Positions 1 to 63,022 of a stretch of 64,000 bases of DNA are shown here, piece by piece. Origin of the DNA: Octopus vulgaris (Eukaryota). The stretch is from positions 14,942,001-15,006,000 of the forward strand of contig OX597814.1 in NCBI GenBank assembly GCA_951406725.2, given 5' to 3'. A model generated the notes under the pieces. That model did not search any database. It saw only the letters and a program-made list of their open reading frames with translations, and was not told the DNA's origin. Positions within the stretch are counted from its first letter, which is position 1. Each line of letters opens with the position of its first letter. Position numbers and translations under genes: made by a program.

Positions 1-1289
1 AGCGTTGCATAAAGAGTGTATAATCTTCAAATTCACAAACTTTTTTCAAAATAACAGGTGGTTAATGATATAAAGAATAATTTATATTTGTTTTTAGCTT
101 TTGATATAAAATGAATACAAAGCGGAATTACATTGTCTAAAGCCAGTTATTGTTATTCAAACAAAGATATTCGGAAATGCATCTATCCGTCGAAGTTGCA
201 AATCCGGCGATAATCTATCACATATTGGAAATAAGAACTTCTTGTGACCGACATATTTCTTGTAATGTGTGTTAAGAGGAACAGCACATTATAATGCTAA
301 CCTGTTGACCCATATATTGCACGGGGGTGGTGTCTGTGGTCATGATTGATCCACAGGTACCGGAAATTAAAAAAAAAACATTACACTTCTAAATTTAATT
401 TTAATACTATTGTACATGTGTATGATTAGAAAAAGCAATTTTTTTATTTTTCATTTAGAATATTATATTTGAATAAGGCCCGTTCATATGAGCTGCGTTG
501 CATAAAGAGAATATAATCTTCAAATTCATAAACTTTTTTATAATAACCGGTGATAAATGATATAAAGAATATTTTATATTTGTTTTTAGCTATTAATATA
601 CCTGAATGCTTAAATTGTGTCCAGTGTTATGTCGTATTTGATAATTTTTGTTCTCTTGGGTACAATTCCCCTTCTTGTGCTAATGTTATTTTTGGTGACT
701 TCGGCCATTGTAGATATTCCAGGTGAAATTAAGTTGACGGTGCAAAACCAGCAATATGGACATTTCTGATAATTAAAACGTACGGCATTATCACACAACG
801 TGACACGCTGAATCCGCGCCAACATTTTGCTAAATATAAGCCTGTCTGAGGAATGCTCAGCCATTTATATGCTAATATAATAAGCAAGTAGTTCAATTCA
901 TCGCTAATCAGAGAACCAACGAAGGTGCTTTTAGTTCGGTAACACAAAATATAAGTATAAACACTTCCAGACAGAATATTCGTTTCAATATACCTTTTTC
1001 AATTATTTCAAGACGAATGCAGTAGTATATATTATTGTATGGAATGAATTAAATCATCTATCATTTTTTTAATGAGAATTTACCAAACGTACAACATCAT
1101 ATGACATATATACGAATAATGTTGGTGAAGAAGATTCATTCTTATTGCAACATTATGGAATGTCATCTAACTAGATATAAAGAACAATTCCTATCTGTAA
1201 ACTGCAATCTTACAAATAACTCACACACACACACACACACACGTACAAACCCACACACAAACACGCAAACGCACGCGCGCACACACATA

Positions 1290-2135
1290 CAGTATACTAT
1301 GGGTAAATTGTCTCCATTTTTCAATTTGAATTTTACGCATTATTTGATTTTGATTTTGTCGACCACACAAGATAGTTGTATCAGTGGGACGCTATCCGTG
1401 AGAAACTCACCATGACTCAATTCACTCTGCCATAAAGTTGGAAATGACATTCTGTACTGCTTAGTATTCGCGCTGGAAGCTCCGATACGAACAGATGGTG
1501 AACACACGGAAAACCGTTAGCTTGCCGTGTTCCCAAAACATGTACCGAGAGTAACAGATATCAAACATCAGTCAACATTACGGTGTTTGGAGTGATCATT
1601 AGTGATGATGGCGTTATGCTTCAATATATCATCCCACACGGCCTCAGACTCAAAACAGAGGCCTGCATCAAGTGTTTGAAGGGGTTAGAGCTGCCCTGGA
1701 TCAAGACGGTGGCTGCTGGAAGACTATGTCTGGCAACAGGACTCTCTATCATGCCACACAAACAGTCATGGCTGTCAGACAATTTCTGCCATCACATCAC
1801 TCCTAACATCTGGCCATCTAACTCCCCAGACTGCAACCTCCTTGATTATTATGTGTGGCGGTGCAGTTGAGCGAGAGACCATCAAAACTCCTTGTAACGC
1901 CAAAAATGACCTGAAAACAAGGATTATGGCAGCATTCACGAACCTAAATAAGAGACCGTTCTGAAGTGTCTCAGAGGATTCCGAAGTCGCTTGGAGGCCG
2001 TAGTTGAAGCCAATGGCGATTTTATTGAAAGAATTTACTCTTTAGTATTTTAAGATAATTTTATGTACTTTTGGTAAATATATCTTTTAAAATTAGATGT
2101 CAGTGTTATTTTCCTTTTTGCGTAATTTAGACTCT
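1290..2135 (+). mobile_element. Decayed Tc1/mariner-superfamily DNA transposon (maT/DD37D-like), left-arm copy
   Basis: ORF 1583-1870 contains VFGVIISDDGVM...WPSNSPDCNLLDYYVW (WPPNSPDLNPLDY motif); WQQDS lies in a shifted frame. Confidence 0.8.
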
Positions 2136-2250
2136 GTTTATATATATGTGTATGTATGTATGTATGTATGTATGTATGTATGTATGTATGTATGTATGTA
2201 TGTATGTATGTGTATGTATAAATATATATGTATACTAATTATATACATAA

Positions 2251-2287
<37 letters not shown>

Positions 2288-2290
<3 letters not shown>

Positions 2291-2871
2291 TCGGCTCCAG
2301 CTCGTATCCGAGTATTAGGTTCATCAGTTTCTATTCAGTCTCCTCGGTTGATGTTTGTGCCGAAAGTGACTTTGGAGTCCAAGTCGAGGGTGAGAGAGTC
2401 GTGGACAGAATTCAGAATTCGCACAGGATAGTCAGTGTGGGTCGAGGATATTGACGCTCCTTTCTTCACTTGTATTTTACCGCCTCAGACTTTTGTCTGT
2501 TCTGATCGAAGGAGCTGGTTCCATTCCGGATAGCAGTCCTCCAGGCTGATCTATCCATGGCACTTTTTTCCCATGAGGATGTTTAGATATTAGTTTGAGC
2601 CCGGGTCCGTTTGAGCTGTTCTTTAAAACAGAATTTTAGACCACCTCTGGATCTTGTTCCGATTGCAAGTGCTCCGTGGAGCATGATCCACGGAAGACGT
2701 GAGGGCTCCATACGCTGGACGTGACCTACCCAGCGGAGGCTACGGCTGAAAATGGTGGATTCGATGTTTGATTGTGAGGCACGGCGAAGAACATCGTTGT
2801 TGGTAATGTGATCTTCCTATCGAATATTGAAGAGCTTTCGTAGATTGAATTGCTTGAAGCATTCGAGGCGC
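2288..2871 (-). mobile_element. RTE-clade LINE 3' fragment, inverted copy
   Basis: Reverse complement of 2908-3480. Confidence 0.8.
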
Positions 2872-3480
2872 CTGTGAGATTTGGATGCTGTATCGTCGTC
2901 ACTTCAAGCGCCTCGAATGCTTCAAGCAATTCAATCTACGAAAGATCTTCAATATTCGATAGGAAGATCACATTACCAACAACGATGTTCTTCGCCGTGC
3001 CTCACAACCAAACATCGAATCCACCATTTTCAGCCATAGCCTCCGCTGGGTAGGTCACCTCCAGCGTATGGAGCCCTCACGTCTTCCGTGGATCATGCTC
3101 CACGGAGCACTTGCAATCGGAACAAGATCCAGAGGTGGTCTAAAATTCTGTTTTAAAGAACAGCTCAAACGGACCCGGGCTCAAACTAATATCCAAATAT
3201 CCTCATGGGAAAAATGTGGCATAGATAGGACAGCCTGGACGACTGCTATCCACAATGTAGCCAGCTCCTTCGAGCAGAACAGCCAAAAGAATGAGGCGGT
3301 AAAATACAGAAGAAAGGAGCGTCAACATACTCGATCCACATCGACCATCCTGTGCGAATTCTGCCCACGACTCTCTCACCACCGACTTGGAATCCAAAGT
3401 AACTTTCGGCGCAAACATCAGCCGAGGATACTAGATAGAAAATGACGAACCCAATGCTCGGATACGAGCTGGAGCCGACG

Positions 3481-3482
<2 letters not shown>
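2868..3482 (+). mobile_element. RTE-clade LINE 3' fragment (end of RT and C-terminal C2H2-like motif)
   Basis: Reads ACEIWMLYRRHFKRLE...ITNNDVL, then MEPSRLPWIMLHGAL...RSRGG...DRTAW...CEFCPRLSHHRLGIQSNFRRKH, typical of the RTE ORF C-terminus. Confidence 0.85.
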
Positions 3483-3558
<76 letters not shown>

Positions 3559-3560
<2 letters not shown>

Positions 3561-4563
3561 TAGCATTAAAGACCCGTCGTTGCCGGGTCATAGTGCTAGT
3601 GCATGTATATGTGTGTATATATATGTGTACATATTACATGTACATCTATATATATACAACTACATATAAAATGCAAAATACAAAGGTATATCTTGATATC
3701 GCTAGTGATAACAATACACACACATATATATATATATATCCTAGCATTAAAGACCCGTCGTTGCCGGGTCATAGTGCTAGTGCATGTATATGTGTGTATA
3801 TATATGTGTACATATTACATGTACATCTATATATATACAACTACATATAAAATGCAAAATACAAAGGTATATCTTGATATCGCTAGTGATAACAATACTC
3901 AATTAGCTCTTCTTTTTTCTCTACATTGTATACTTTATAGACAATAGTATTTTCTTTAATTTAATTATTTATTATCCATCTGAACTATTCCATTTCTGCA
4001 CGCTAATTTTATTTTTAATTTATTCCCATACATGTGAAACCACTTATTCAAGTTCAAATCATTGATGCAATTTTATACCAATTGCTATTTTTACCTTTGT
4101 TATGTTAGGATTATATTATACTTTAGTTTGATTTTAATTATTACTTACTACATATAAATGAATTGTTATTATTATTTTTATTGTTAAAGTGGAAGCATCT
4201 GACATAAAATAGAGAAATATTTTTGTTTCACTTTTAACACGTAATACTGAAATAGTGAAGAAGATATGATATTGCTATGGGCTCGCTCTAAGCAAGAAGT
4301 TGAACATGGACCCTAAGTAAGGCATATGTAAAATTTGAATGAAATTGGTTGTGTAGTTCTCAAGTTTAAGGGAATCGTAGTGGAGAAGATATGATATTGC
4401 TGTGGGCTTACCCTAGGCAAAAAGTTAAAATTTTTTGCTGATGACACTCCCCGGACCCTAAGTAAGGCATGCGTAAAATTTGAATGAAATTGGTAGTGTA
4501 GTTCTCAAGTTTTAGGGAAACACACAGACAGACAGAAACACATTCTCAGTTTTATATATATAA

Positions 4564-4566
<3 letters not shown>
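3559..4566 (-). mobile_element. Non-autonomous Helitron/Helentron-like element whose terminal hairpin-CTAG segment is tandemly duplicated (3559-3718 and 3740-3898)
   Basis: Hairpin gacccg-tcgttgc-cgggtc flanked by ctag. On the minus strand the 5' end reads tctttatatatataaaactgaga followed by (tctg)n, homologous to 23674 onward. Confidence 0.55.
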
Positions 4567-4617
<51 letters not shown>

Positions 4618-4685
4618 GTATATAATTAGTATACGCATACATATATATTTATACATATACATACACACATGCATATCTATATAAA

Positions 4686-5552
4686 CAGAGTGCAGTGAAT
4701 ATATTGTCGTCTAAATTATGCAAACAGGAAAATAACACTGACATCTCATTTTAAAAGATATATTTACCAAAAGTAAATAAAACTATCTTAAAATACTAAA
4801 GAGTAAATTCTTTCAATAAAATCGCCATTGGATTCAACTACGGCCTCCAGGCGACTTCGGAATCCTCTGCAACACTTTTGAACGGTCTCTTGTTTAAGTT
4901 CAGGAGGGCTGCCATAATCCGTGCCTTCAGTTCATCTTTGGCGTTACAAGGAGTTTTGATGGTCTCTCGCTCAACTGCACCTCACACATAATAATCAAGT
5001 GGTGTTGCAGTCAGAGGAGTTAGGTGGCCAGATGTTAGGGGTGATATGGTGGCAGAAATTGTCTGACAGCCATGACTGTTTGTGTGATATAGTACAGAGT
5101 CCTCTTGCCAGACACAGGCTCTTCCAACAGCCACCGTCTAGATCCAGGGCAGCACTAATTCCTCCAAGCTCTTAATGCAGCCTTCTGTTTTGAGTCTGAG
5201 GCCGTGTGGGATGATATATTAAAGCATAACGCCATCATCACTAATGATCACTCCAAACACCGTAATGTTGACTGATGTTTGATATCTGTTACTCTCGGTA
5301 CATGTTTTGGGAACACGGCAAGCTAACGGTTTTCTGCGTGTTCACCATCTGTTCGTATCGGAGCTTCCAACGCAAATACTAAGCAGTACAGAATGTCATT
5401 TCCAACTTTCTGGCAGAGTGAATTGAGTCATGGTGATTTTCTCACAGATAGCGTCCAACTGATACAACTATCCTGTGTAGTCGACAAAATCAAAATCAAA
5501 TAATGCGTAAAATTCAAATTGAAAAATGGAGACAATTTACCCATAGTATACT
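4686..5552 (-). mobile_element. maT/Tc1-mariner remnant, right-arm copy
   Basis: Reverse complement of 1290-2135 with the same internal structure. Confidence 0.8.
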
Positions 5553-6249
5553 GTATGTGTGTGCGCACGCGCATGAGTGTATGTATGTGTATGTGCGCGT
5601 GAGTGTGTGTGTGTGTGTGTGTGAGTTATTTGTAAGATTGCAGTTTACAGATGGGAGTTGTTCTTTATATCTAGTTGGATGTCATTCAATAATGTTGCAG
5701 TTAGAATGAATCTTCTTCACCAACATTATTCGTATATATGTCATATGTTGCTGTACATTTGGTAAATTTTCATCAAAAGATGATAGATGATTTAATTCAT
5801 TCCATATAATAATATATACTACTGTATTCGTCTTGAAATAATTGAAAAGGGTATATTGAAACGAATATTCTGTCTGGAAGTGTTTATAATTATATTTTTT
5901 GTTACCCAACAAAAAGCACCTTCGTCGGTTCTCTGATGAGCGATGAATTAAACTACTTGCTTATTATATTAGCATATAAATGTTTGAGCATTCCTCAGAC
6001 AGGCTTATATTTAGCAAAATGTTGGCGCGGATTCAGCATGTCACATTGTGTGATAATGCCGTACATTTTAATTATCAGAAATGTCCATATTGCCGGTTTG
6101 CACCGTCAACTTAATTTCACCTGGAATATCTACAATGGCCGAAGTCATCAAAAATAACATTAGCACAAGAAGGGGAATTGTACCCAAGAGAACAAAAATT
6201 ATCAAATACGACATAACACTGGACACAATTTTATCATTCAGGTATATCA

Positions 6250-7245
6250 ATAGCTAAAAACAAATATAAAATATTCTTTATATCATTTATCACCGGTTAT
6301 TATAAAAAAGTTTATGAATTTGAAGATTATATTCTCTTTATGCAACGCTGCTCATATGAACGGGCCTTATTCAAATATAATATTCGAAATGAAAAATAAA
6401 AAAATTGCTTTTTCTAATCATACACATGCACAATAGTATTAAAATTTAGAAGTGTAATGTTTTTTTTTAATTTCCGGTACCTGTGGATCAATCATGACCA
6501 CAGACACCACCCCCGTGCAATATATGGGTCAACAGGTTAGCATTATAATGTGCCGTTCCTCTTAACACACATTACAAGAAATATGTCGGTCACAAGAAGT
6601 TCTTATTTCCAATATGTGATAGATTATCGCCGGATTTGCAACTTCGACGGATAGATGCATTTCCGAATATCTTTGTTTGAAAAACAATAACAGGCTTTAG
6701 ACAATGTAATTCCGCTTTGTATTCATTTTATATCAAAAGCTAAAAACAAATATAAATTATTCTTTATATCATTAACCACCTGTTATTTTGAAAAAAGTTT
6801 GTGAGTTTGAAGATTATACACTCTTTATGCAACGCTTCTCATATGAATGCGCCTTACTCAAATATCATATTTGAAATGTTAAAAAGTAGAAAAAAATATG
6901 TCTAATCATACACAAACACAATGGTATTAAATTAAAATTTAGAAGTGTAACGTGTTTTAGTTTCCGGTACCTGTGGATCAATCATGACCACAGACACCGC
7001 CCCCGTGATATGTGGGTTAGCAGGTTAATAAACTGTAAAAAAATCAATGTCCTGTTCCTTTTAACACATTTTAGAAGAATTATGTCGGTGACAAGAAGTT
7101 CTTATTTCCAATATGTGATAGATTATCGCCGGATCTGCAACTTTGACGGAAAAATGCATTTCCGAACACATTTGTGTCCCTACAATTATCGTTGAATGAG
7201 AATATACGTTGCACAATGTAATTCCGCTTTGTGTTTATATTATAT
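6250..7245 (+). repeat. ~487-bp tandem duplication of the IL-17 upstream module
   Basis: agctaaaaacaaatataaa at 6253 and 6738; tgcaacgct at 6341 and 6828; ttccggtacctgtggatcaatcatgaccacagacacc at 6472 and 6962. Confidence 0.9.
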
Positions 7246-7388
7246 ATAAGCAAACACGGGACAGGTTAATGTCAATCACATCGCCAATCACATCGAGAAG
7301 AGAACAATTCGACCTAAGTTGAAAATAGTAATAGTATACAGCTACCGACTCTACATTTTGTGCCAAGTTATCGAACTCGAACATTACA
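7140..7388 (+). promoter_or_regulatory. IL-17 gene A proximal promoter and 5' UTR (ATGCATTTCCG motif, kB-like GTAATTCC, TATA box ~7241-7250)
   Basis: Motif order and spacing are conserved upstream of all six exon-1 copies; tatatataag lies ~145 bp before the ATG. Confidence 0.65.
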
Positions 7389-7403
7389 ATGAAGACATCT
7401 ACA
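7389..7403 (+). CDS. IL17: IL-17-like gene A, coding exon 1 (MKTST), phase-0 intron to 9522
   Basis: ttacaATGAAGACATCTACA|GTAAGT. The same micro-exon/donor pattern recurs at 12703, 32671, 36069, 48055 and 62891, and it joins exon 2 in frame. Confidence 0.85.
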
Positions 7404-7552
7404 GTAAGTAAATATACTACAATGATATTATCTGCTATATTTATCTTTGTAATAATATTTTCATCCTACATTAACTAAATATATGTACTGGGGCCATATG
7501 TATACATACACATACATACATGCATGCATACATACATACATACATACATACA

Positions 7553-9521: not shown

Positions 9522-10049
9522 GTTCTCTCCAGCATCGTCATATTTCTATTCAACATCGCCTTTCTTGTATCATCGGCATCAATTCCAGACCAGTGTAAAA
9601 TACCAGCCAATCTGAAGGTTCAGTACCAGACATTGTCCCGTGCAGCTATTGGCAATAACTTTTTACTACCAGTTGAAAGAGCTCCGGCCGGAAGTAAGCA
9701 GAACTCCCAGACAGACGGGGATAAAACTTGCCCAACGTCTCCTTCATCCAGCGATATCATCCGTGAACGTTCGACCTGCCCTTGGTACCTGAACATTACC
9801 CATGATTCAACAGTTTTCCCTCCATCGCGCACCGAAGCCGTGTGTCGCTGTAACGACTGCTTCGATTCAGACAACAACCACGAATGTGTGATGGTATATA
9901 CTCCAATGACTGTCCTTAAACGTACCGATGAATGTGTTGATGGACTGTACGTGTATAAACCAAAAGTGATTGAAGTAGCCACAGCTTGTGCATGCGCACG
10001 AAAAGCCGACACACGAAATGTTGACGGCGATGATGATTACGAGTCGTAA
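9522..10049 (+). CDS. IL17: IL-17-like gene A, exon 2; spliced protein 180 aa, join(7389..7403,9522..10049)
   Basis: Acceptor ttttctctgacag|GTT. Hydrophobic signal VLSSIVIFLFNIAFLVSSA. IL-17 motifs RSTCPWY, CRCxxC, V-L-K-R and TACAC. 10 Cys, NIT sequon, AATAAA at 10310. Confidence 0.93.
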   Translation, partial: VLSSIVIFLFNIAFLVSSASIPDQCKIPANLKVQYQTLSRAAIGNNFLLPVERAPAGSKQNSQTDGDKTCPTSPSSSDIIRERSTCPWYLNITHDSTVFPPSRTEAVCRCNDCFDSDNNHECVMVYTPMTVLKRTDECVDGLYVYKPKVIEVATACACARKADTRNVDGDDDYES

Positions 10050-12135: not shown

Positions 12136-12140
12136 TATTA
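11972..12140. repeat. (TAA)n/(TTA)n/(CAT)n compound microsatellite
   Basis: Direct reading. Confidence 0.95.
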
Positions 12141-12776
12141 TATTCTCTTCATGCAACGCTGCTCATATGAACGGGCCTTATTCAAATATAATATTCAAAA
12201 AGTGAAATAAAAAAATTGCTTTTACTAGTAATACACATGTACGATAATATTGAAATTAAATTTAGAAGTGTAATGTTTTTTTTAGATTTTTTTATTTCCG
12301 GTACCTGAGGATCAATCATGACCACAGACACCACCCCCGTGCAATATATGGGTTAACAGGTTAGCATTATAATGTCCTGTTCCTCTTAACCCATTTTACA
12401 AGAATTATGTCGGTCACAAGATGTTCTTATTTACAATAGGTGATAGATTATCGCCGGATTCTCAACTTCGACGGAACAAGCATTTCCGTAATATTTTCGT
12501 TCCTTCTACGTTCGCTGAAAGAAAACATTGTTTACCTGTGATAATTCCGCTTTGTATTCATATTATATATAAGCAAACTCAGGAAAGGGTAGTATCATTA
12601 AGAACGCATATCACATCGCGAAGGAACATTTCAGCCAAAGTCAAAAATAATAATAATATAACTGCCGACTCGACATTTGCTGCCAAGTAATCGAGCATTA
12701 CAATGAAGACACCTACATTCAGTAAATATTCATTAACGATTTTGTTGCTATATTTACGTTTGTAGCAATATTTTCA

Positions 12777-12780
<4 letters not shown>
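12140..12780 (+). pseudogene. Orphan IL-17 promoter and exon 1 (MKTPT at 12703-12717) with destroyed donor and no exon 2
   Basis: Homologous to 6330-6740 and 7200-7465. Reads ATGAAGACACCTACA|TTCAGT instead of GTAAGT. No + strand exon 2 was found downstream. Confidence 0.8.
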
Positions 12781-12824
<44 letters not shown>

Positions 12825-19463: not shown

Positions 19464-19994
19464 TTATGTTTCGTAAGACGCATATTTGTCGTTTTTATAT
19501 CCATCAATTTTTCTTGCACACACACAAGCTGTACCTACATTAATCACAATTGGTTTATACACGTACAGTCTAGCAACACATTTATTTGTACGTTTGAGGA
19601 CAGTCATTTTAGTATATACCGTCACACATTGGTATTTGCTGCTGCTAAAATCTCGACAGCCTCTGCAGCGACACACAACTTCGGTACGGGATGAAGGGAA
19701 AACTGTTGAATCATGGGTAATATTCACGTACCATGGGCAGGTTGAACGTTCGCGGATGATATCAATAGATGCAGAAGATGTTGGGCAGGTTGTATCCCCG
19801 ACGATCAGTGGTTTCCGGTTACTTCCGACTGGAGTAACTCTAGCCAGTAGGAAAAACTTGTTGCCAACGGCTGCACGGGACAGCCTCTTGTATCGGAATT
19901 TCAGATTGGTTGGTATTTTACATTTGGTTGGAATTGACGCCGATGATACAAACGAGGTGACGCTGGAGAGAAATATTACAATGTGGGAGAAAAC
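19464..19994 (-). CDS. IL17: IL-17-like gene B, exon 2; spliced protein 181 aa with exon 1 at 32657-32671 or 36055-36069
   Basis: Acceptor ttttctctctggcag|GTT. Signal VFSHIVIFLSSVTSFVSSA. Motifs RSTCPWY, CRCRGC, VLKR and TACVC. 10 Cys aligned with gene A. Confidence 0.93.
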   Translation of the reverse strand, partial: VFSHIVIFLSSVTSFVSSASIPTKCKIPTNLKFRYKRLSRAAVGNKFFLLARVTPVGSNRKPLIVGDTTCPTSSASIDIIRERSTCPWYVNITHDSTVFPSSRTEVVCRCRGCRDFSSSKYQCVTVYTKMTVLKRTNKCVARLYVYKPIVINVGTACVCARKIDGYKNDKYASYET

Positions 19995-22442: not shown

Positions 22443-22565
22443 ATATAAAAGGAATTCCAACCTTGTCTGATTTTCACGTTTTATTTACAATCTTATAATG
22501 ATATAAGATAATATAATATAATAAAATAAAATAATATAATAGAATGTTAAATGTTCATTATGATT

Positions 22566-22608
22566 GAACTAGTACTTTCATGCATTGAATTCTGCAATCT
22601 TCAGGTTC
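22566..22608 (-). ncRNA. Minimal type I hammerhead ribozyme
   Basis: gaac-CTGAAGA-ttgca-gaattcaa-tgcat-GAAAG-ta-CTA-gttc; stem I gaac/gttc; palindromic agtact. Confidence 0.7.
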
Positions 22609-22902
22609 GTGTAGTAGTGGTGACAGTCATGCTTCACAATTTTTGACTGTAGCGAGATGATTGAATCTGTGCCTTAAATACAGCTGTGTGGACTCCAGAA
22701 TGCTAGGTTTTGCAAACTGTATTCTGAACAATCAGTGTTGTAGTATCACTCAATTACTTAAGCTGATTGGTTGGTTGAGCTGATTGGTTTAGGCGTCACG
22801 GTTTGTTGGACATGTCAAGAGTCCTGTATCTTAACCTTGGCCTAGGCTTCTCAATTTTTGACAGTCAAAAATTGTGAAGCATGACTGTCACCACTACAAC
22901 AC

Positions 22903-22945
22903 GAACCTGAAGATTGCAGAATTTAATGCATGAAAGTACTAATTC
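22903..22945 (+). ncRNA. Minimal type I hammerhead ribozyme (mirror copy)
   Basis: gaac-CTGAAGA-ttgca-gaatttaa-tgcat-GAAAG-ta-CTA-attc. Confidence 0.65.
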
Positions 22946-23100
22946 AATCAGAATGAACATTTAACATTCTATTATATTATTTTATTTTATCTTATTATAT
23001 TATCTTATATCATTATAAGATTGTAAATAAAACGTGAAAATCAGACAAGGTTGGAATTCCTTTTATTAATATATTCTTCTATACACAATCACCCCCCCCC

Positions 23101-23150
<50 letters not shown>

Positions 23151-23673
23151 CACAATATATAAATATTTGATAACGACAATTGTATTACTGTCTAAAATAC
23201 GCAAAAACTTTGTGAAAAAAAAATTATTAATTACTAAGAATAATAGACTTAGCTAAAGATTAAAAAATTAAAAACCAATATATTATCGACTAAAACATAA
23301 TGAATACCATAATTCAAAGTTAATAACATAATGATTTAAAACGAAAGTAAAAAGAAATTCATTTATTAACAAATGGCTACCTTCAAGTAAAACAGAGTAG
23401 TATCTCTTCAATATGAATAAATGAATTAATTAATGAAAATGATTGAAAAGTAATTGCATGTAAAATTCTTTCAATCTCTAAATATCAGATAAACTTAAAT
23501 CACTGAAAATGTCCTAAACATTTACATTTAAATATAAAAAAAGGATTATTTGCTACAATAAAAACTTATATTACATTACGTTACAAATTGAATCAAACCA
23601 AGAAATAAATATTTGCATATGTAAACGTACATATATACACATACATACATACATACATACGTATAAATATAAT

Positions 23674-23911
23674 AATCTATATATGTAAAACTGAGAATTA
23701 TGTTGACTGTCTGTGTTTCTGTGTGTGCATTACTAAAACTCGAGAACTACCCAACCGATTTTATACAAAATTTACACATGCCTTACTTAGTGTCATGGGC
23801 CAAGACATTTTCAACTCCTTGATTAATGCGAGCCCGGATCAATCTCTTATGTTTTACACTATTTCAGTATTACGTATCAAAAGTGAAACACTAACACTAC
23901 ACATGTGTATG

Positions 23912-31250: not shown

Positions 31251-32284
31251 AAATGAGACACGGTATAAATAACGGTCATTACACATTTTTCTTTCTTGCT
31301 TGTAGTAAATTTGACTTAAATTAGTTTCCAGTGTTCATTAACCAGAAATTACTCTGACGAAAGTAGCACCAAAATTTTTTTCATGTCATTTAATTATTAT
31401 AAACCGATCAATGGGCCGATTAAGTAAACCAATCAGTAACGAACCCATAATGACTACAGGAAACATCTGTAAGTCAAATTTACTTCAATAAAGAAAAATA
31501 CGGTATAACCATTATTTATACATTCTCTTGTATATATCACTGTGCGTAAAGCCCAGTATAACACAAGAACAACCACGGATACATACGTATATATATATAT
31601 ATATATATATTACATGCACATATAAATATGAATGCTCTATGTATGTGTATCTATGTATGAGTACATACATGCATATATATTTATATTTGTGTGTGTGTGT
31701 ATATATATATTTAAATGTATGCATATGCATATGTAAGAATGTTTCTTTGTACAACACAGTTGAATGTGGTTGGGTATGTAGGTCAGTCAATGGAAATCAA
31801 GTTTTAAACCCAATCTCTTAGTTTTCTCTTGTATAAAAATAATAACAAAATGGAAAAAAAACACGACATAAAATAAATTGATAACAAGATTTGTTCAAGT
31901 GTCTTTACTTAAATGCAATTCTTAGTAATTCATCACTCTGAAAACGAGCAAAATTTCTTTGATAACAAAATCCTTGTAAACATCGAATAGTAATTTACAG
32001 GCCAGTAAATGTATAAGATTATTAACTCTAACGGTCAAGTATAGGGATTATAAATGGTATACGGGTATGTTTAATAAAATTATATTTAACCATCGTCACT
32101 TTGTCTAACAGCATTGGGAAGATAGAAAAATTGTATGAAGTAAGATCGTTGTTGCTGCCTCCTTAATTACGGTAAATTCGAATTTGCCGAGTAAAATTTC
32201 TGTCAAATATTTTAATGGAGAATGTGTCATTATGAGAATCTTGCCTATATCACAATTGATAAAAGCATAGAAATGTGTAAAGAA

Positions 32285-32592
32285 ACCCTTCAGTCATTAA
32301 TGACCATGGGATTGCACCTAGAAAGTTACCCTCCACGGCACGAGACCAGGCAAGATTGTTTATAGAAGACAGGCAGTCGCCCATGCATACCAACTTCCGA
32401 TGTCATCCAAGAGAAAGACAAAGGCAGATACAGCTTGGCGCCAGTGACGTCGCAGCTCATATATATATCTGAGGAAACTGGAGCAATGTGAAATAAAGTG
32501 TCTTGGTCAAGAACACAACACAGAGCCCGGTCTGGGAATCGAAATCATAACTTCTTGATTCTGGGCCCGACGCTGTAAACACTCAGCCACGC
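32285..32592 (-). mobile_element. tRNA-derived SINE in the gene B intron (duplicate at ~35685-35990)
   Basis: Minus strand gtggctgagtg...gatttcgattcccagaccgggc...gttcttgaccaagacactttatttcaca. Confidence 0.7.
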
Positions 32593-32656
32593 TACTTAAA
32601 AACATAACTACATAAATAAAGACTGTAGATAATATCATTAAAATATGTTTACTTAC

Positions 32657-32671
32657 TGTAGGTATCTTCAT
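32657..32671 (-). CDS. IL17: IL-17-like gene B, coding exon 1 (MKIPT), proximal copy; ~12.7-kb intron
   Basis: Minus strand ttacaATGAAGATACCTACA|GTAAGT with upstream module homologous to gene A; nearest same-strand exon 1 for exon 19464-19994. Confidence 0.75.
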
Positions 32672-33908
32672 TGTAATACTCGATTACTTCGAAATGAATA
32701 TGGAAACGACAGCAGTATGGTGTAATTTTCAAATAGAGCCTGATTATATTCTGTTCTCGATGTGATACGCGTTCTTAAATCTATTGTCTGTATTGAGTTT
32801 TCTTACATATAAGGCGTAGACACAGTGGAATTACCATGGGTAAAGTACGTTATTGTTTTTCAACAGAGTAAAAGACTGATAAACATACGAAAATGCACTT
32901 TATCTCAAGGTTATGAATCGAGCTCTAATCTATCATTCAAAATGTTAAGAATGTTTGAGATCGATATAATTCCTTAGTTAGGAGTTGACAGGGTGTACAT
33001 TCCATAATTTTATTTTTTTACACTATATTAATCTATTATTTGTTTGCGGTGTTTGTGATAATCATTGATACGCAGGAACAGGATGGTACTATAATACATT
33101 CCTTTCTTATCGTTATTATCAAAATTTTGTCTATTTGTATATTAATCAAACATTTTTCAAATTTTAAAGATAAGTAGTATAAAAGTAGTATAATAAGTAG
33201 TATAATTTCAAAGATAAGTAGTATAAAAATATTAGGTTATTTTTTTCTTTTTAATTTATTAACTAGCTTGTCTGGAGTGTTAAAATTTTCTCCTCAGTTA
33301 TAAGGTCTTTTGTATGATTGTCTGGTAACATCTTGTTCCTTGCTATTGCCTATGGTCATCATAGATATTGTGATAGATATTAGATAAAGAGAAACGTCTG
33401 AGGTAACTGATAGGTTAAATTATTTTTGCAAGTAAAATCTACAGCTTTGCCACACTCTGTTTTATGCTGATTCTTCACGAAAGTTTCGTTAGAGACACGT
33501 CTGGAGGATGCTCTGTAACGCTGCTTCAATGAGTAGTCTGTTGAGTTGATTGTTAAACTTTGAAGTCGAGAGAAATCCTATTATTTGGATAACATATGAT
33601 AAACGAAAATAAACATTTACTTTCAATGTATGAAGATTTTTCTTCCATAGAAAATTCTTCAGCAGAAAAGGTGTGATATTTTGTTATACCGAATAAATGA
33701 AAGCTTTCTTAAATATCACACACCGACTCTCTCATTTGAAAAATTTTAGTAGATATTGCCAAGAGTTTTCTTCCTTGTGTAGATTTGGCATGATTCTCAT
33801 TTCTAATATGTATTTTGACCCACATACGGCACCAACTATGGCTACATATTGACTGAGAAGTAGGAATAAGCAGATGTACTTCAAGAGGAAATAGCCAGAA
33901 TTTCCCTA

Positions 33909-33956
<48 letters not shown>

Positions 33957-33999
33957 ATACGTATATGTTTATATATATATATATATATATATACGTATA

Positions 34000-34592
34000 T
34001 ATGGAGAGATAGCAGATGTCAACTCAATATTTGCGGTTGCTTTTGGTTAATTCATGAGGCATCCATTTTCCAAGTTTCGGGACACTTCCAAGTTGTTAGA
34101 GGTCGATGAACAGTTGTATGGTTTGAACTAAGCTTTATTGCCAATTCATCAACTGATAATGCAGGATCTTCTTCAAGTAATGCCTCAAGGAGCTTATCAT
34201 CAAACTCAACTAGACGTCCTGTTCGAGCTTCACCCTCAAGGCTGAACTCTCCACTTCTGAATTTTGCAAACCATCTTCTCCAAGTTCTTTCATTCAATCA
34301 TTCTTTCCCATAAACTGAGTGTATGTTTCGAGTTGCTTCGGCTGCAGTGTTTCCTTTCTTGTACTCATAGAGCATTATGTGCCTCAAATGCTCTTTGGAT
34401 ACTTCCATGTTAGAAAGGGTCTTAATCAAAGAAATTTTAATTCTATTATTCTGTAAAATAATATTTAATTAGTTTAAATGTACACAAATGCATAAAAATA
34501 TTTTTAATTCCATTAGATATTCTAAAATTCTATTAAATTTCATTCTATTAAAAAAAGGTTAAATCTGACAGGACTTATGGGGATAGCCTGAT
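34000..34592 (-). mobile_element. mariner 5' half (duplicate of 39720-40311)
   Basis: NERTWRRWFAKFRSGEFSLE..ARTGR helix-turn-helix region; TIR at 34565-34591. Confidence 0.9.
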
Positions 34593-34961: not shown

Positions 34962-35001
<40 letters not shown>

Positions 35002-36054
35002 CATGCACATATAAATATGTATGCTCTATGTATGTGTATCTATGCATGAGTACATACATGCACATATATATATATATATATATATTTGTGTGTGTGTGTA
35101 TATATATATAAATGTATGCATATGCATATGTAAGAATGTTTCTTTGTACAACACAGTTGAATGTGGTTGGGTATGTAGGTCAGTCAATGGAAATCAAGTT
35201 TCAAACCCAATCTCTTAGTTTTCTCTTGTATAAAAATAATTAAAAAATAAAAAAAAAAACACGACATAAAACAAATTGATAACAAGATGTGTTCAAGTGT
35301 CTTTACTTAAATGCAATTCTTAGTAATTCATCACTCTGAAAACGAGCAAAATTTCTTTGATAACAAAATCCTTGTAAACATCGAATAGTAATTTACAGGC
35401 CAGTAAATGTATAAGATTATTAACTCTAACGGTCAAGTCTAGGGATTATAAATGGTATACGGGTATGTTTAATAAAATTATATTTAACCATCGTCACTTT
35501 GTCTAACAGCATTGGGAAGATAGAAACATTGTATGAAGTAAGATCGTTCTTGCTGCCTCCTTAATTACGGTAAATTCGAATTTGCCGAGTAAAATTTCTG
35601 TCAAATATTTAAATGGAGAATGTGTCATTATGAGAATCTTGCCTATATCACAATTGGTAAAAGCATAGAAATATGTAAAGAAACCCTTTAGTCATTAATG
35701 ACCATGGGATTGCACCTAGAAAGTTACCCTCCACGGCACGAGACCAGGCAGGATTGTTTATAGAAGACAGGCAGTCGCCCAAGCACACTAACCTCCGATG
35801 TCATCCAAGAGAAAGACAAAGTCCGATACAGCTTGGCGTCAGTGACGTCGCAGCTCATATTTACATCGGAGGAAACTGGAGCAATGTGAAATAAAGTGTC
35901 TTGGTCAAGAACACAACACAGAGCCCGGTCTGGGAATCGAAATCATAACTTCTTGATTCTGGGCCCGACGCTGTAAACACTCAGCCACGCTACTTAAAAA
36001 CATAACTACATAAATAAAGACTGTAGATAATATCATTAAAATATGTTTACTTAC

Positions 36055-36069
36055 TGTAGGTATCTTCAT
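36055..36069 (-). CDS. IL17: IL-17-like gene B, duplicate/alternative exon 1 (MKIPT) with duplicated promoter
   Basis: Identical ATGAAGATACCTACA|GTAAGT within the tandem duplication. Confidence 0.65.
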
Positions 36070-37270
36070 TGTAATGCTCGATTACTTCGAAATGAATATG
36101 GAAACGACAGCAGTATGGTGTAATTTTCAAATAGAGCCTGATTATATTCTGTTCTCGATGTGATACGCGTTCTTAAAGCTAGTGTCTGTATTGAGTTTTC
36201 TTACATATAAGGCGTAGACACAGTGGAATTACCATGGGTAAAGTACGTTATTGTTTTTCAACACAGTAGAAGACTGATAAGCATACGAAAATGCACTTTA
36301 TCTCAAGGTTATGAATCGAGCTCTAATCTATCATTCAAAATGTTAAGAATGTTTGAGATCGATGTAATTCCTTAGTTAGGAGTTGACAGGGTGTACATTC
36401 CATAATTTTATTTGTTTACACTATATTAATCTATTATTTGTTTGCGGTGTTTGTGATAATCATTGATACGCAGGAACAGGATGGTACTATAATACATTCC
36501 TTTCTTATCGTTATTATCAAAATTTTGTCTATTTGTATATTAATCAAACATTTTTCAAATTTTAAAGATAAGTAGTATAAAAATATTAGGTTATTTTTTT
36601 CTTTTTAATTTATAAATTAGCTTGTCTTCTGGAGTGTTAAAATTTTCTCCTCAATTATAAGGTCTTTTGTATGATTGTCTGGTAACATCTTGTTCCTTGC
36701 TATTGCCTATGGTCATCATAGATATTGTGATAGATATTAGATAAAGAGAAACGTCTGAGGTAACTGATAGGTTAAATTATTTTTGCAAGTAAAATCTACA
36801 GCTTTGCCACACTCTGTTTTATGCTGATTCTTCACGAAAGTTTCGTTAGAGACACGTCTGGAGGATGCTCTGTAATGCTGCTTCAATGAGTAGTCTGTTG
36901 AGTTGATTGTTAAACTTTGAAGTCGAGAGATATTCTATTATTTGGATAACATATGATAAACGTAAATAAACATTTACTTTCAATGTATGAAGATTTTTCT
37001 TCCATAGAAAATTCTTCAGCAGAAAAGGTGTGATATTTTGTTATACCGAATAAATGAAAGCTTTCTTAAATATCACACACCGACTCTCTCATTTGAAAAC
37101 ATTTAGTAGATATTGCCAAGAGTTTTCTTCCTTGTGTAGTTTTTCCATGATTCTCATTTCTAATATGTATTTTGACCCACATACGGCACCAACTATGGTT
37201 ACATATTGACTGAGAAGTAGGAATAAGCAGATGTACTTCAAGAGAAAATAGCCAGAATTGCCTTAATGTA

Positions 37271-37309
<39 letters not shown>

Positions 37310-37470
37310 GTATATATATGTATGTATGTATATATATATGTATATACGTATATGTTTATATATATATATATGTATATATATGTGTGTGTATACAAGAGTG
37401 AGTCTACATATGTATATCTCAACAAGTACTCTCAGGATAAAACTCATGATGTTCGCAGACTTCAATATGT

Positions 37471-38240: not shown

Positions 38241-38536
38241 GAGAAGACTGTTGAATCATGAATTAAATTTAGGTACCTAGGGCAGATTCAACGTTCACGG
38301 ATGATATCAGCATATAAGGATGTTGAGCAGGATTTATCACCATCGGGCGGTACTGCCTGGTATCTCCCGGCGGGTCCCATTTCAGCAGAAAGAAATAAGT
38401 AGTTGCCAATGGCTGCATGAGAATGACTTTCGTATCGGACATTCAAATCGGATTGTATTTTACTTTGGGCTGGAATTGTCACCGATGTTACGAGCAAAAT
38501 GATGTTGAAGAGAAATATTACTATCTGGGAGAGAAC
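38241..38536 (-). pseudogene. IL17: IL-17-like pseudogene C, exon 2 (premature stop, 3' half missing)
   Basis: Acceptor tttctttcaggcag|GTT. Reads VLSQIVIFLFNII...AAIGNY...DGDKSC...DIIRER*ICPRYLNLIHDSTVF; homology ends at Penelope sequence. Confidence 0.9.
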
Positions 38537-48010: not shown

Positions 48011-48040
48011 TAATAATATTATTAAAATGTGTTTACTTAC

Positions 48041-48600
48041 AGCAGGTACCTTGATTGTAATGCTCGATTTCTTCGAAATGAATACGGATTACTTGTTAGT
48101 AACAAGAGAGTCAAGAGCAGTATAGCATTATTTTCAAATAGAGACTAATTATGTTGTCCTCTAGATGTGATTTGCGGTCTTAATAATATTGGATGTCTTG
48201 ACTTTGCTTAGACATAACGGAACTACCACGGATAAAGCAAGTTATTGTTTTTCAACACAAGTAGAAGGAAGTAACAAAATTTCGGAAATGCATTTTTCCG
48301 TTAAGTTTGTAAATCCGGCGGTAATCGATTATATTGAACGTTTTTGACCGACATAATTCTTGGAAAATGGGTTAAAAGGAACAGGACATATATTTAATTG
48401 ATTTTGTATTAATCCACGTTGCATGGGAGCGGTGTTTGTGATTATCATTGATTCATATGTACAGGAAATTACAAAACATTACGTTTCTAATCTATATTTG
48501 AATAGTATCTGTGTATGTTAGGCAGCAAATATTTTTTTGTTTTCAAATTTCAAAGATTATATTTGAGTAAGGAGGATACATATGTGAAACGCGGCATTCA
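48041..48600 (-). pseudogene. IL17: IL-17 pseudogene C promoter and exon 1 (48041-48055) with ATG>ATC
   Basis: Minus strand gagcattacaATCAAGGTACCTGCT|GTAAGT; upstream module homologous to the others (aaaaatgcatttccga, aatcaatgataatcacaaacaccgc). Confidence 0.82.
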
Positions 48601-56204: not shown

Positions 56205-57360
56205 CTAGGTTGCTAGAAACACTTTTGCTGGAAATAAGAGCTAAAACGCTCTAAAATTGTAGTCAAAGCACATAATTATATGCATATATACTGACATGGG
56301 CTATCGTCGTACGAAAACATCGATTTAGTATTCCTTATACAGACCGGTCAGTTTTGGTAATTTTCGCTGCCTCATCAGTAAGGACTTATTCGAATTTGAC
56401 AGATTCTGGATTGAATTCTCTGTCAGTATATATGTTTTCACCATAAAAATCTATGGATGATTTCGCAAATTGCTATTGTGTACACAGAAAATTAATGTCG
56501 ACAGCAGTATACAATGTTTTACCAAAAAGGAAAACTATAAATATCCCTAAATATGACTAGGGCTTTAGAAACACCTACGTTGCTCGATAGTCCCTGTCAC
56601 TATATATGTGTAAAATAATGTGTTTTGGCTACAGCATCAGAGCATTTTAGTGCTTAATTCTAGTAATGTAGGAGTTTCTAACACCCTAGTCATACCTAGT
56701 AATAATTATATATTTCTTTACTACCCACAAGGGGCTAAACATAGATGGGGACAAACAAGGACAGACAAAGGGATTAAGTCGATTACATCGACAACAGTGC
56801 GAAACTGATACTTAATTTATCGACCCCGAAAGGATGAAAGGCAAAGTCGACCTCGGCGGAATTTGAACTCGGAACGTAACGGCAGATGAAATACGGCTAC
56901 GCATTTCGCCCGGCGTGCTAACGTTTCTGCCAGCTCGCCGCCCTAGTAATAATTATAGTTTTTCTTTTCGGTAAAGCATTGCAACCTGGTGTCAAAATTA
57001 ATTTTCTGTATCCACATTAACGATTTGCTAAACCATCAGTAAGGTTTTATGGTGAAAACATATATACTGGTAGGGAATTCACTCTGGAATCTGCCGAAGT
57101 CGAGCTAGTCCTCATTGATGAGGCAACGGAAATTGCTGAAACTGACCGGTCAGCTTAAGGAATTCCCGATCGGTGTTTTCGAGCGATTATAGTCTTTGTC
57201 AGTATATATGTACGCATTTATGTGCTTTCACTACAGCATTAAAACATTTTAGCTCTAATTTTTAGCAACGCAAGTGTTTCTAACCCCCTAGTCATAGTTA
57301 GTGAAAATTATAATTTTACTTTTTGGTAAAACATTGCAAACTGCTGTTTATATTAATTAT
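56205..57360. mobile_element. Retrozyme-like ~350-nt tandem repeat with hammerhead, in two inverted arrays (56205-56590 minus; 56600-57360 plus)
   Basis: Monomer boundary motif gtttctaac...ctag recurs ~350 nt apart in each array after removing the SINE; hammerheads at 56333-56383 (-) and 57110-57160 (+). Confidence 0.6.
56711..56941 (-). mobile_element. SINE family C with 16-bp TSD
   Basis: TSD cctagtaataattata at 56695-56710 and 56942-56957. Confidence 0.92.
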
Positions 57361-62639: not shown

Positions 62640-62760
62640 GGAAGAATGCATTTCCGTCATTTTGCTAGTTCCGCCTCGATATCTATAAATTTCATAATTT
62701 ACGTTAAATATGTCTCATGGGGAAATTCCGTTATGTCTATATACAATATATAAATAAGCA
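62640..62760 (+). promoter_or_regulatory. IL-17 gene D promoter: ATGCATTTCCG motif, NF-kB site GGGAAATTCC (62720-62729), TATA box (~62747-62756)
   Basis: Exact match to the GGGRNWYYCC consensus ~20 bp upstream of tatataaata; same layout as the other IL-17 promoters. Confidence 0.7.
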
Positions 62761-62890
62761 AACTTAGGATAATTGATATCAAAAAGAAAGCAAATCAGAT
62801 CGAGAACTGAGTACAGTCAAGACCCCCTTGAAAAAGTTATATCATATTGCTAAAGTCTTCGTCTTTGTTCCCATTTCAACAAGCCTTACA

Positions 62891-62905
62891 ATGAACATGA
62901 CAAAA
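62891..62905 (+). CDS. Putative IL-17-like gene D, coding exon 1 (MNMTK); exon 2 expected beyond the window
   Basis: ttacaATGAACATGACAAAA|GTAAGT; same length, context and promoter motifs as the other exon-1 copies. Confidence 0.65.
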
Positions 62906-63022
62906 GTAAGTTATAGCATCTTAACGGCATTATATATCATATATTTCAGGTTTACACAGTAAATATTCGTAAGTCAATACTATCTGATGCATTTATCTTT
63001 CTATTAATGTTTCCTTATATAA

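Follow-up and report, generated by a model that had tools for sequence, protein, structure and literature searches.

An inverted duplication opens the stretch of the Octopus vulgaris genome analysed here (assembly GCA_951406725.2, contig OX597814.1, positions 14,942,001 to 15,006,000; these 64,000 nucleotides (nt) are termed the window, and coordinates below are counted from its first base). The duplication lies upstream of an IL-17 gene, here called gene A, and is centred in a broken long interspersed nuclear element (LINE). The reading favored in this report, to which we give a probability of about 60%, is that the duplication started as a fold-back, that its arms have since undergone patchy gene conversion, and that a head-to-head twin of gene A is to be expected left of the window. 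The identity of gene A, proposed in an initial annotation made from the sequence, agrees with a Pfam match to the IL17 domain (PF06083; E 7e-16) that scores 58.8 bits, above the gathering cut-off of 24.

Structure of the inverted duplication

In a self-comparison the left arm occupies 1-2871 and the right arm 2908-6836, on either side of a 36-nt spacer (2872-2907). These limits, and a match that still persists at base 1 of the window (377 nt at 99% identity), agree with the initial annotation, which gave arms of at least 2.9 and 3.9 kb around a 36-bp spacer. Global alignment of arm against arm extends over 2,856 columns with 166 mismatches. The right arm is the longer because an insertion of about 1.0 kb, seated within a microsatellite (3558-4555), is present in that arm alone. 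Read outward from the centre, the right arm consists of the 3' fragment of the LINE, this insertion, a decayed transposase of the Tc1/mariner type, and a doubled promoter module. Inverted arms about a single-copy spacer, the arrangement looked for in a fold-back duplication, are thus what is found here.

Both arms in public sequencing runs

Contigs from 4 of 24 listed public runs (X1, X3, X4 and X5, from four studies) were compared with the window over 5630-7480. Two of the runs are of organism A and one each of organisms B and C, with X4 and X5 coming from two organisms other than that of X1 and X3; no run contains more than 72% of the words of this stretch, and by shared 31-mers the window lies about 2% (an upper bound) from those two organisms. 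Both arm versions are present in contigs of all four runs, in three coded organisms, and the duplication is therefore taken to be real and to predate the split of these organisms; its reality we regard as close to certain. Among the variant rows listed up to 6836, 18 of 30 carry the left-arm letters of the window, and 4 of the 9 indel rows listed also match gaps of the arm alignment. Over 5718-5879, a contig without differences from the right arm is found in X1 and again in X3, in both beside another that, with 9 differences and 1 gap, resembles the left; over 5630-5837, X4 and X5 have two versions (5 versus 15-17 differences), and arm-specific letters are common to the organisms compared. No joints are listed among the run contigs over 5630-7480, a stretch without the centre. 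Loose ends at 5967/6000 and 6889/6922 were discarded as 34-nt matches that are loose on both sides, and an X3 contig at 6340-6489 was rejected as left arm, being of the promoter type found at 12 kb in the window (see below).

An assembly artefact, in which two paralogous loci or haplotypes were joined head-to-head by way of a fold-back chimeric read, would fit the peak of near-identity beside the centre, and the join at the centre is known from the assembly alone. Against this, the innermost 286 nt of the arms still differ by four substitutions, which are changes from the LINE consensus on both arms and which one chimeric molecule would not yield; the window contains no N; and the two versions recur in every run. 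An artefact, already called unlikely in the initial annotation, is on these grounds very improbable.

The junction within the LINE

From 2870 the + strand frame runs across the spacer and on into the right arm, reading ACEIWMLYRRHFKRLE. A HMMER search with the LINE fragment returned 2,289 relatives, and scanning of long homologues revealed RVT_1 in 7 of 8 and an endonuclease domain in 4 of 8; the fragment is homologous to the C-terminal part of reverse transcriptase-bearing LINE proteins, which identifies it as a non-long terminal repeat (non-LTR) retrotransposon. A word-indexed protein search with the same fragment gave no relative among 36 candidates, the relatives having been found by the full HMMER search. 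The fragment is presumably of the RTE clade, judging by its motifs.

Of the 150 HMMER matches listed, 49 extend upstream of the spacer. These agree with the window through the spacer, and their likeness to it ends abruptly at the junction (2870), positions -14 to -1 before the junction giving no match to the homologue consensus. The spacer is accordingly contiguous ancestral sequence of one arm, with an abrupt end at the other, as a fold-back requires; frame and homologues together bear out the earlier statement that the spacer extends the + strand frame of the LINE. A tyrosine stands directly before the junction (-1) in 41 of these 49 homologues, and its codon leaves room for an inverted match of 2 or 3 nt to 2908-2910, not of 4-5 nt. 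Any microhomology that pre-existed at the base of the loop was probably 2-3 nt long. Within the predicted loop itself no strong hairpin forms (-1.5 kcal/mol, z +1.15), as is expected for microhomology priming. The initial annotation had proposed a left arm copied by fold-back within the LINE and primed at a GCGC(C) microhomology. Its geometry is supported, with likeness that stops at the junction and a spacer that is single-copy; its priming match was not upheld, as GCGC(C) is unreadable from the duplicated product and the homologues indicate the shorter one.

Patchwork divergence of the arms

Divergence between the arms is uneven (chi-square p about 1e-13 over 8 bins); the pattern remains when CpG sites are removed, and CpG decay was rejected as its cause. 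Within the LINE fragment, the 1.4% of the centre-side patch steps sharply at 3193 to 12.5% just outside it. Within the transposase remnant, 49 of 472 positions differ (10.4%) up to 5183 and 11 of 329 (3.3%) thereafter, and near the promoter 25 of 361 drops to 7 of 587 (1.2% over 6250-6836). Permutation, with a free breakpoint allowed, gave breakpoints at 3193 (p=1e-4), 5183 (p=0.008) and 5984 (p=0.0015). Two of the three fall within dead transposon sequence, and clustered runs of near-identity in neutral sequence, the mark sought for conversion, are present. Both arms bear LINE changes of their own (12 vs 16), and the high-divergence patches therefore record real age; replacement of one arm from another LINE copy was rejected on the same counts (p=0.57).

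As judged from their sequence, the arms are a mosaic of old patches (10-12%) and of patches that appear re-homogenised (1-3%), not one frozen copy. The duplication itself thus survives from the earlier description of the left arm as a fold-back copy, and the idea of a single frozen copy does not, with divergence that runs from 1.4% to 12.5% in one LINE fragment. It is likely that the patches have been kept alike by repeated arm-to-arm gene conversion. In addition, the letters of X4 and X5 at 6295, 6300 and 6339 are all foreign to the window, the two arms of which agree at these sites, and one contig of 224 nt is all that X4 has over 5951-6173, a tract with 7 differences between the window arms; these signs, which come from unphased contigs and may reflect collapsed or missing ones, point toward conversion. 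Positions 6413, 6417 and 6441 were dropped as changes common to both arms because their letters equal those of two older promoter copies.

Might the low-divergence patches have arisen without conversion, through mutation rates that are uneven and purifying selection that acts on regulatory DNA? The outer low-divergence region does consist of promoter sequence that is common to other IL-17 promoters in the window, and selection can explain similarity there. It can hardly explain the steps from 1.4 to 12.5% and from 10.4 to 3.3%, which lie inside dead LINE and transposase fragments and are kept without CpG sites, and at 6295, 6300 and 6339 the other organisms differ from both window arms. This explanation is improbable.

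Late homogenisation near the centre also means that the present junction may postdate the first duplication, by a later template switch. In that event an older duplication, made by another route and with a spacer of at least 322 nt, would have been altered much later by a template switch that added an inward copy of 286 nt from the right arm and left the 36-nt spacer. The abrupt change at 3193 is what such an event would produce; the excerpts available of two papers add that the centres of primate palindromes are their least stable parts, those with small spacers most of all (PMC8327919), and that template switching homogenises the arms of inverted repeats (PMC8604942). Against it, one fold-back followed by conversion on the centre side yields the same sequence with no extra junction; and since the old patch is itself part of the LINE fragment at the junction, the first event fell within 300 nt either way. 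A secondary centre is therefore the unlikely option, and we lean toward the present junction being the original break.

Gene A and its predicted twin

The mirror visible in the window stops inside the second promoter module, 552 nt short of the ATG, and the mirror position of the gene A ATG computes to -552, matching the earlier estimate of about 550 bp left of the window; the exon there remains a prediction. Second versions of the sequence beyond 6836 are present in X5, at 6823-6976 (2 and 10 differences) and 7124-7263, and in X1, at 7154-7208; second promoter versions reach to about 130 nt from the start codon in two runs, and contigs of X1 and X3 span exon 1. Downstream of a TATA-like box, five letters at 7271-7281 differ from the X1 and X5 contigs, which match the 12-kb promoter, and the window version looks like a local duplication of the adjoining motif. 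An exon-1 twin left of the window is quite likely, and a full twin gene there is somewhat favored.

Three proteins of Octopus sinensis, encoded on one chromosome-size contig, share 95, 95 and 98% identity with exon 2 of gene A, which would place the window in that species or a close relative. In a tree, gene A falls with these three proteins in a single clade, whose sister group is made up of five O. bimaculoides entries, some of which probably are the same gene in two assemblies; the entries of the gene A clade group by species (100/99 and 100/97), a pattern that fits either conversion or parallel duplication. A scan of metagenome contigs with gene A as the query yielded 72 pattern matches, none of them a relative. 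One of the O. bimaculoides entries of this clade, P0040, has at residues 1-95 a LINE reverse-transcriptase piece fused to IL-17 exon 2, probably a mis-predicted exon that stems from a LINE lying upstream; LINEs of this kind are common in octopus. Among the hits, the best match of this piece is P0067, which is also the best long match of the LINE in the window, and the piece may represent the ancestral element in its uncut state, lying upstream of the orthologous gene.

The left arm could also have copied the promoter, with or without exon 1, and no working gene, leaving an orphan like the broken copy at 12.1-12.8 kb. Other orphan or broken first exons do occur in the window (a donor lost at 12.7 kb, an ATG lost at 48.0 kb), and a loose end at 7211 is shared by three of the four runs. 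On the other side, the arms become more alike toward the gene (the 1.2% over 6250-6836), two versions extend to 7263 in X5, and the relatives carry several near-identical proteins of the gene A clade. An orphan arm is possible but doubtful, and the twin gene stays the preferred expectation.

The points that tell against the favored reading are best considered together. Beyond 6836, the second versions may represent the left arm, alleles or a third paralogue, and the X3 contig over exon 1 has a depth of 67, which lies between the one-version values (41-45) and their sum (86), contig depth being no copy number. The loose end at 7211 in X1, X4 and X5 falls short of exon 1; its start has no match within the window, and we read it as a distant paralogue because the second contig of X4 at 7208 does not cover 7188, though it could also be an arm end. 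Two of the three O. sinensis models are without the MKTST exon 1. The figures of the run comparison derive from 32 of 172 pieces, 40 of 117 variant rows and 24 of 27 loose ends, and single contigs may be collapsed bubbles. Adjacency of the arms and their head-to-head orientation are given by the assembly alone, the stretch 5630-7480 excluding the centre. The length of the microhomology derives from protein consensus, not from ancestral LINE DNA. By analogy, finally, human fold-back spacers are far longer (at least 766 nt in the excerpt of PMC3907307) than the 36 nt seen here.

Proposed history

The favored history has four steps. A break or stalled fork in the LINE would have exposed a single-stranded 3' end that paired with an inverted match of 2-3 nt lying 36 nt away, and primed copying would then have proceeded outward through the transposase remnant and the promoter. 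Each arm gained its own substitutions, to a divergence of up to 10-12%, and the right arm its 1-kb insertion. The patchwork of the arms suggests that tracts of a few hundred bases were subsequently overwritten between them, possibly through hairpin or template-switch repair at the centre and through selection-assisted conversion near the promoter. The left arm is predicted to extend across exon 1 (at -552) and probably exon 2 as well, which would give two divergently transcribed, near-identical IL-17 genes.

A more far-reaching version of this history is speculative. It would make the structure a long-lived palindrome of autosome type, born by fold-back in a LINE, in which ongoing conversion keeps two head-to-head IL-17 genes and their promoters near-identical and in which the hairpin-prone 36-nt centre is repeatedly re-perfected, not deleted. 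If true, fold-back and conversion would explain the species-wise grouping of the IL-17 clade in O. sinensis and O. bimaculoides; in the gene model of the latter species, the fused LINE piece would represent the ancestral element in uncut form.

Relation to known palindromes and gene duplications

Fold-back, conversion between arms, head-to-head duplicates and tandem expansion of IL-17 are already known; the conversion patchwork is what is added to the initial annotation. (The papers cited were available in excerpt, and what is said of them applies to the excerpts.) Human fold-back inverted duplications (Hermetz et al. 2014, PMC3907307) show inverted microhomology of 2-8 nt, most commonly 2 nt (7 of 13 junctions), and resemble the octopus case in having a single-copy spacer between inverted arms, with some junctions in a LINE or a short interspersed nuclear element (SINE). 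They differ in being megabase-sized and de novo, with terminal deletions and spacers of 766-70,466 nt, whereas the octopus duplication is interstitial, common to three coded organisms and aged to 10-12% between its arms. In yeast work cited in a review (PMC7999016), repeats of 5-9 nt with spacers of 3-12 nt drive palindromic duplications; a spacer of 36 nt therefore falls between the known cases.

The palindromes of sex chromosomes (primate X, PMC8327919; human Y, PMC8600007) are gene-bearing inverted arms with a within-species likeness above expectation and unstable centres, features that the octopus palindrome would probably share, and conversion between the arms is known from those of the primate X. 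Their arms measure 8-140 kb, with a within-species divergence below 0.2% and spacers from 77 nt; the octopus palindrome, by contrast, has a known arm of a few kb, and conversion in it is patchy (1-12%). Head-to-head pairs make up 10-21% of linked duplicates in the animals tabulated in PMC3194840, where homogenisation is proposed between young inverted gene duplicates that lie near one another, as in Caenorhabditis elegans; the excerpt gives no junction anatomy, whereas the octopus junction and conversion patches can be read base by base.

The O. bimaculoides IL-17 cluster of 31 genes is cited in PMC8353272, where tandem expansion is described. Gene A belongs to the same family, with the same tandem clustering, and groups with O. 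sinensis and O. bimaculoides proteins. The excerpt of that paper speaks of tandem duplication only, without orientation, palindromes or conversion, and our literature search met no account of palindromes, fold-back or conversion in the octopus IL-17 cluster, the 2015 octopus genome paper and its supplement, which may describe orientation, lying outside the search.

The expansion of octopus IL-17 genes is usually ascribed to unspecified tandem duplication, and a readable junction with readable tracts makes the mechanism testable in related assemblies. It is important to emphasize that near-identical IL-17 paralogues need not be young, as the arms are 1% apart at the promoter and 10-12% apart elsewhere, the latter being some five to six times what separates the window from the two other organisms (that distance being an upper bound). 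The persistence in the germline of a multi-kb palindrome with so short a spacer is also relevant to studies of palindrome fragility.

Other IL-17 pieces and repeats in the window

Table 1. Coordinates of the palindrome, gene A and associated features in the window
Feature	Position	Strand	Basis and remarks
Left arm of inverted duplication, continues past window edge	1..2871		Self-comparison, arm alignment; left-arm letters occur as separate contigs in 4/4 runs
LINE (non-LTR) 3' fragment, presumably RTE-like by its motifs, cut at junction	2870..3482	+	Mirror 2287-2871 (-); frame and homologues
Single-copy 36-nt spacer, LINE sequence in frame with right arm; likely fold-back loop	2872..2907		Alignment, frame reading, homologue comparison
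Right arm, up to limit of in-window mirror	2908..6836		Self-comparison, arm alignment
Centre-side patch, apparently homogenised with 2586-2871	2908..3193		4 differences in 286 nt (1.4%)
Old patch of same LINE fragment, own changes on both arms	3194..3482		36 differences in 289 nt (12.5%)
About 1.0-kb insertion inside microsatellite, with internal 178-nt direct duplication	3558..4555		Right arm only; self-comparison, alignment
Decayed Tc1/mariner-type transposase	4709..5512	-	Mirror 1331-2130 (+); Atlas DDE_3 clusters, score 0.92 (a lead only)
Upstream copy of tandemly duplicated promoter module (about 490 nt)	6243..6743	+	Wholly mirrored in left arm, about 99% identity
Gene-proximal copy of promoter module	6729..7254	+	79% to upstream copy; in-window mirror ends inside it at 6836
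IL-17 gene A exon 1, five codons (MKTST), then GT donor	7389..7403	+	Predicted mirror -552 to -566; same N-terminus in P0038
IL-17 gene A exon 2	9522..10049	+	Full twin requires left arm to about -3,212

A Pfam scan of the transposase remnant (4709-5512) gave no hit. The ends of the 3558-4555 insertion may resemble those of non-autonomous elements of the Helentron/DINE-1 type, and part of it has an inverted partial copy at 23622-23890.

Further IL-17 pieces are scattered over the window. At 12137-12801 (+) lies an orphan copy of an IL-17 promoter and exon 1 that has lost its splice donor and is followed by no + strand exon 2; likeness to the upstream promoter module is 89.6% over the first 365 nt, and the whole is 76% like the proximal promoter of gene A. 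A second intact IL-17 exon 2 (19467-19994, -) stands tail-to-tail with gene A and is 99% identical to O. sinensis P0025; candidate first exons for it are found at 32671 (-) and 36069 (-), within a 2.4-kb direct duplication (31579-34000 / 34968-37353, 94.8%). A broken IL-17 gene is made up of an exon 2 with a stop and a truncation (38243-38536, -) and a promoter with an exon 1 that lacks its ATG (48013-48597, -), and 62724-62910 (+) is another IL-17-like exon 1 that faces away from this broken gene, with a promoter likeness of only about 70%. Self-comparison shows no mirrored arms between the two members of this other head-to-head promoter pair (about 48.0-48.6 kb and 62.7-62.9 kb). The proposal that fold-back is one way in which this cluster makes new genes has one case in its favor.

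Two smaller inverted repeats were also noted. The first (22445-23066) has 206-nt arms at 97% and a 210-nt spacer bracketed by a 20-nt direct repeat, from which a near-perfect 35-nt hairpin results at 22846-22880; the structure may represent a foldback element or the product of a second template switch. The other (56225-57268) is a diverged repeat with 325-nt arms at 78% around an inserted short repeat.

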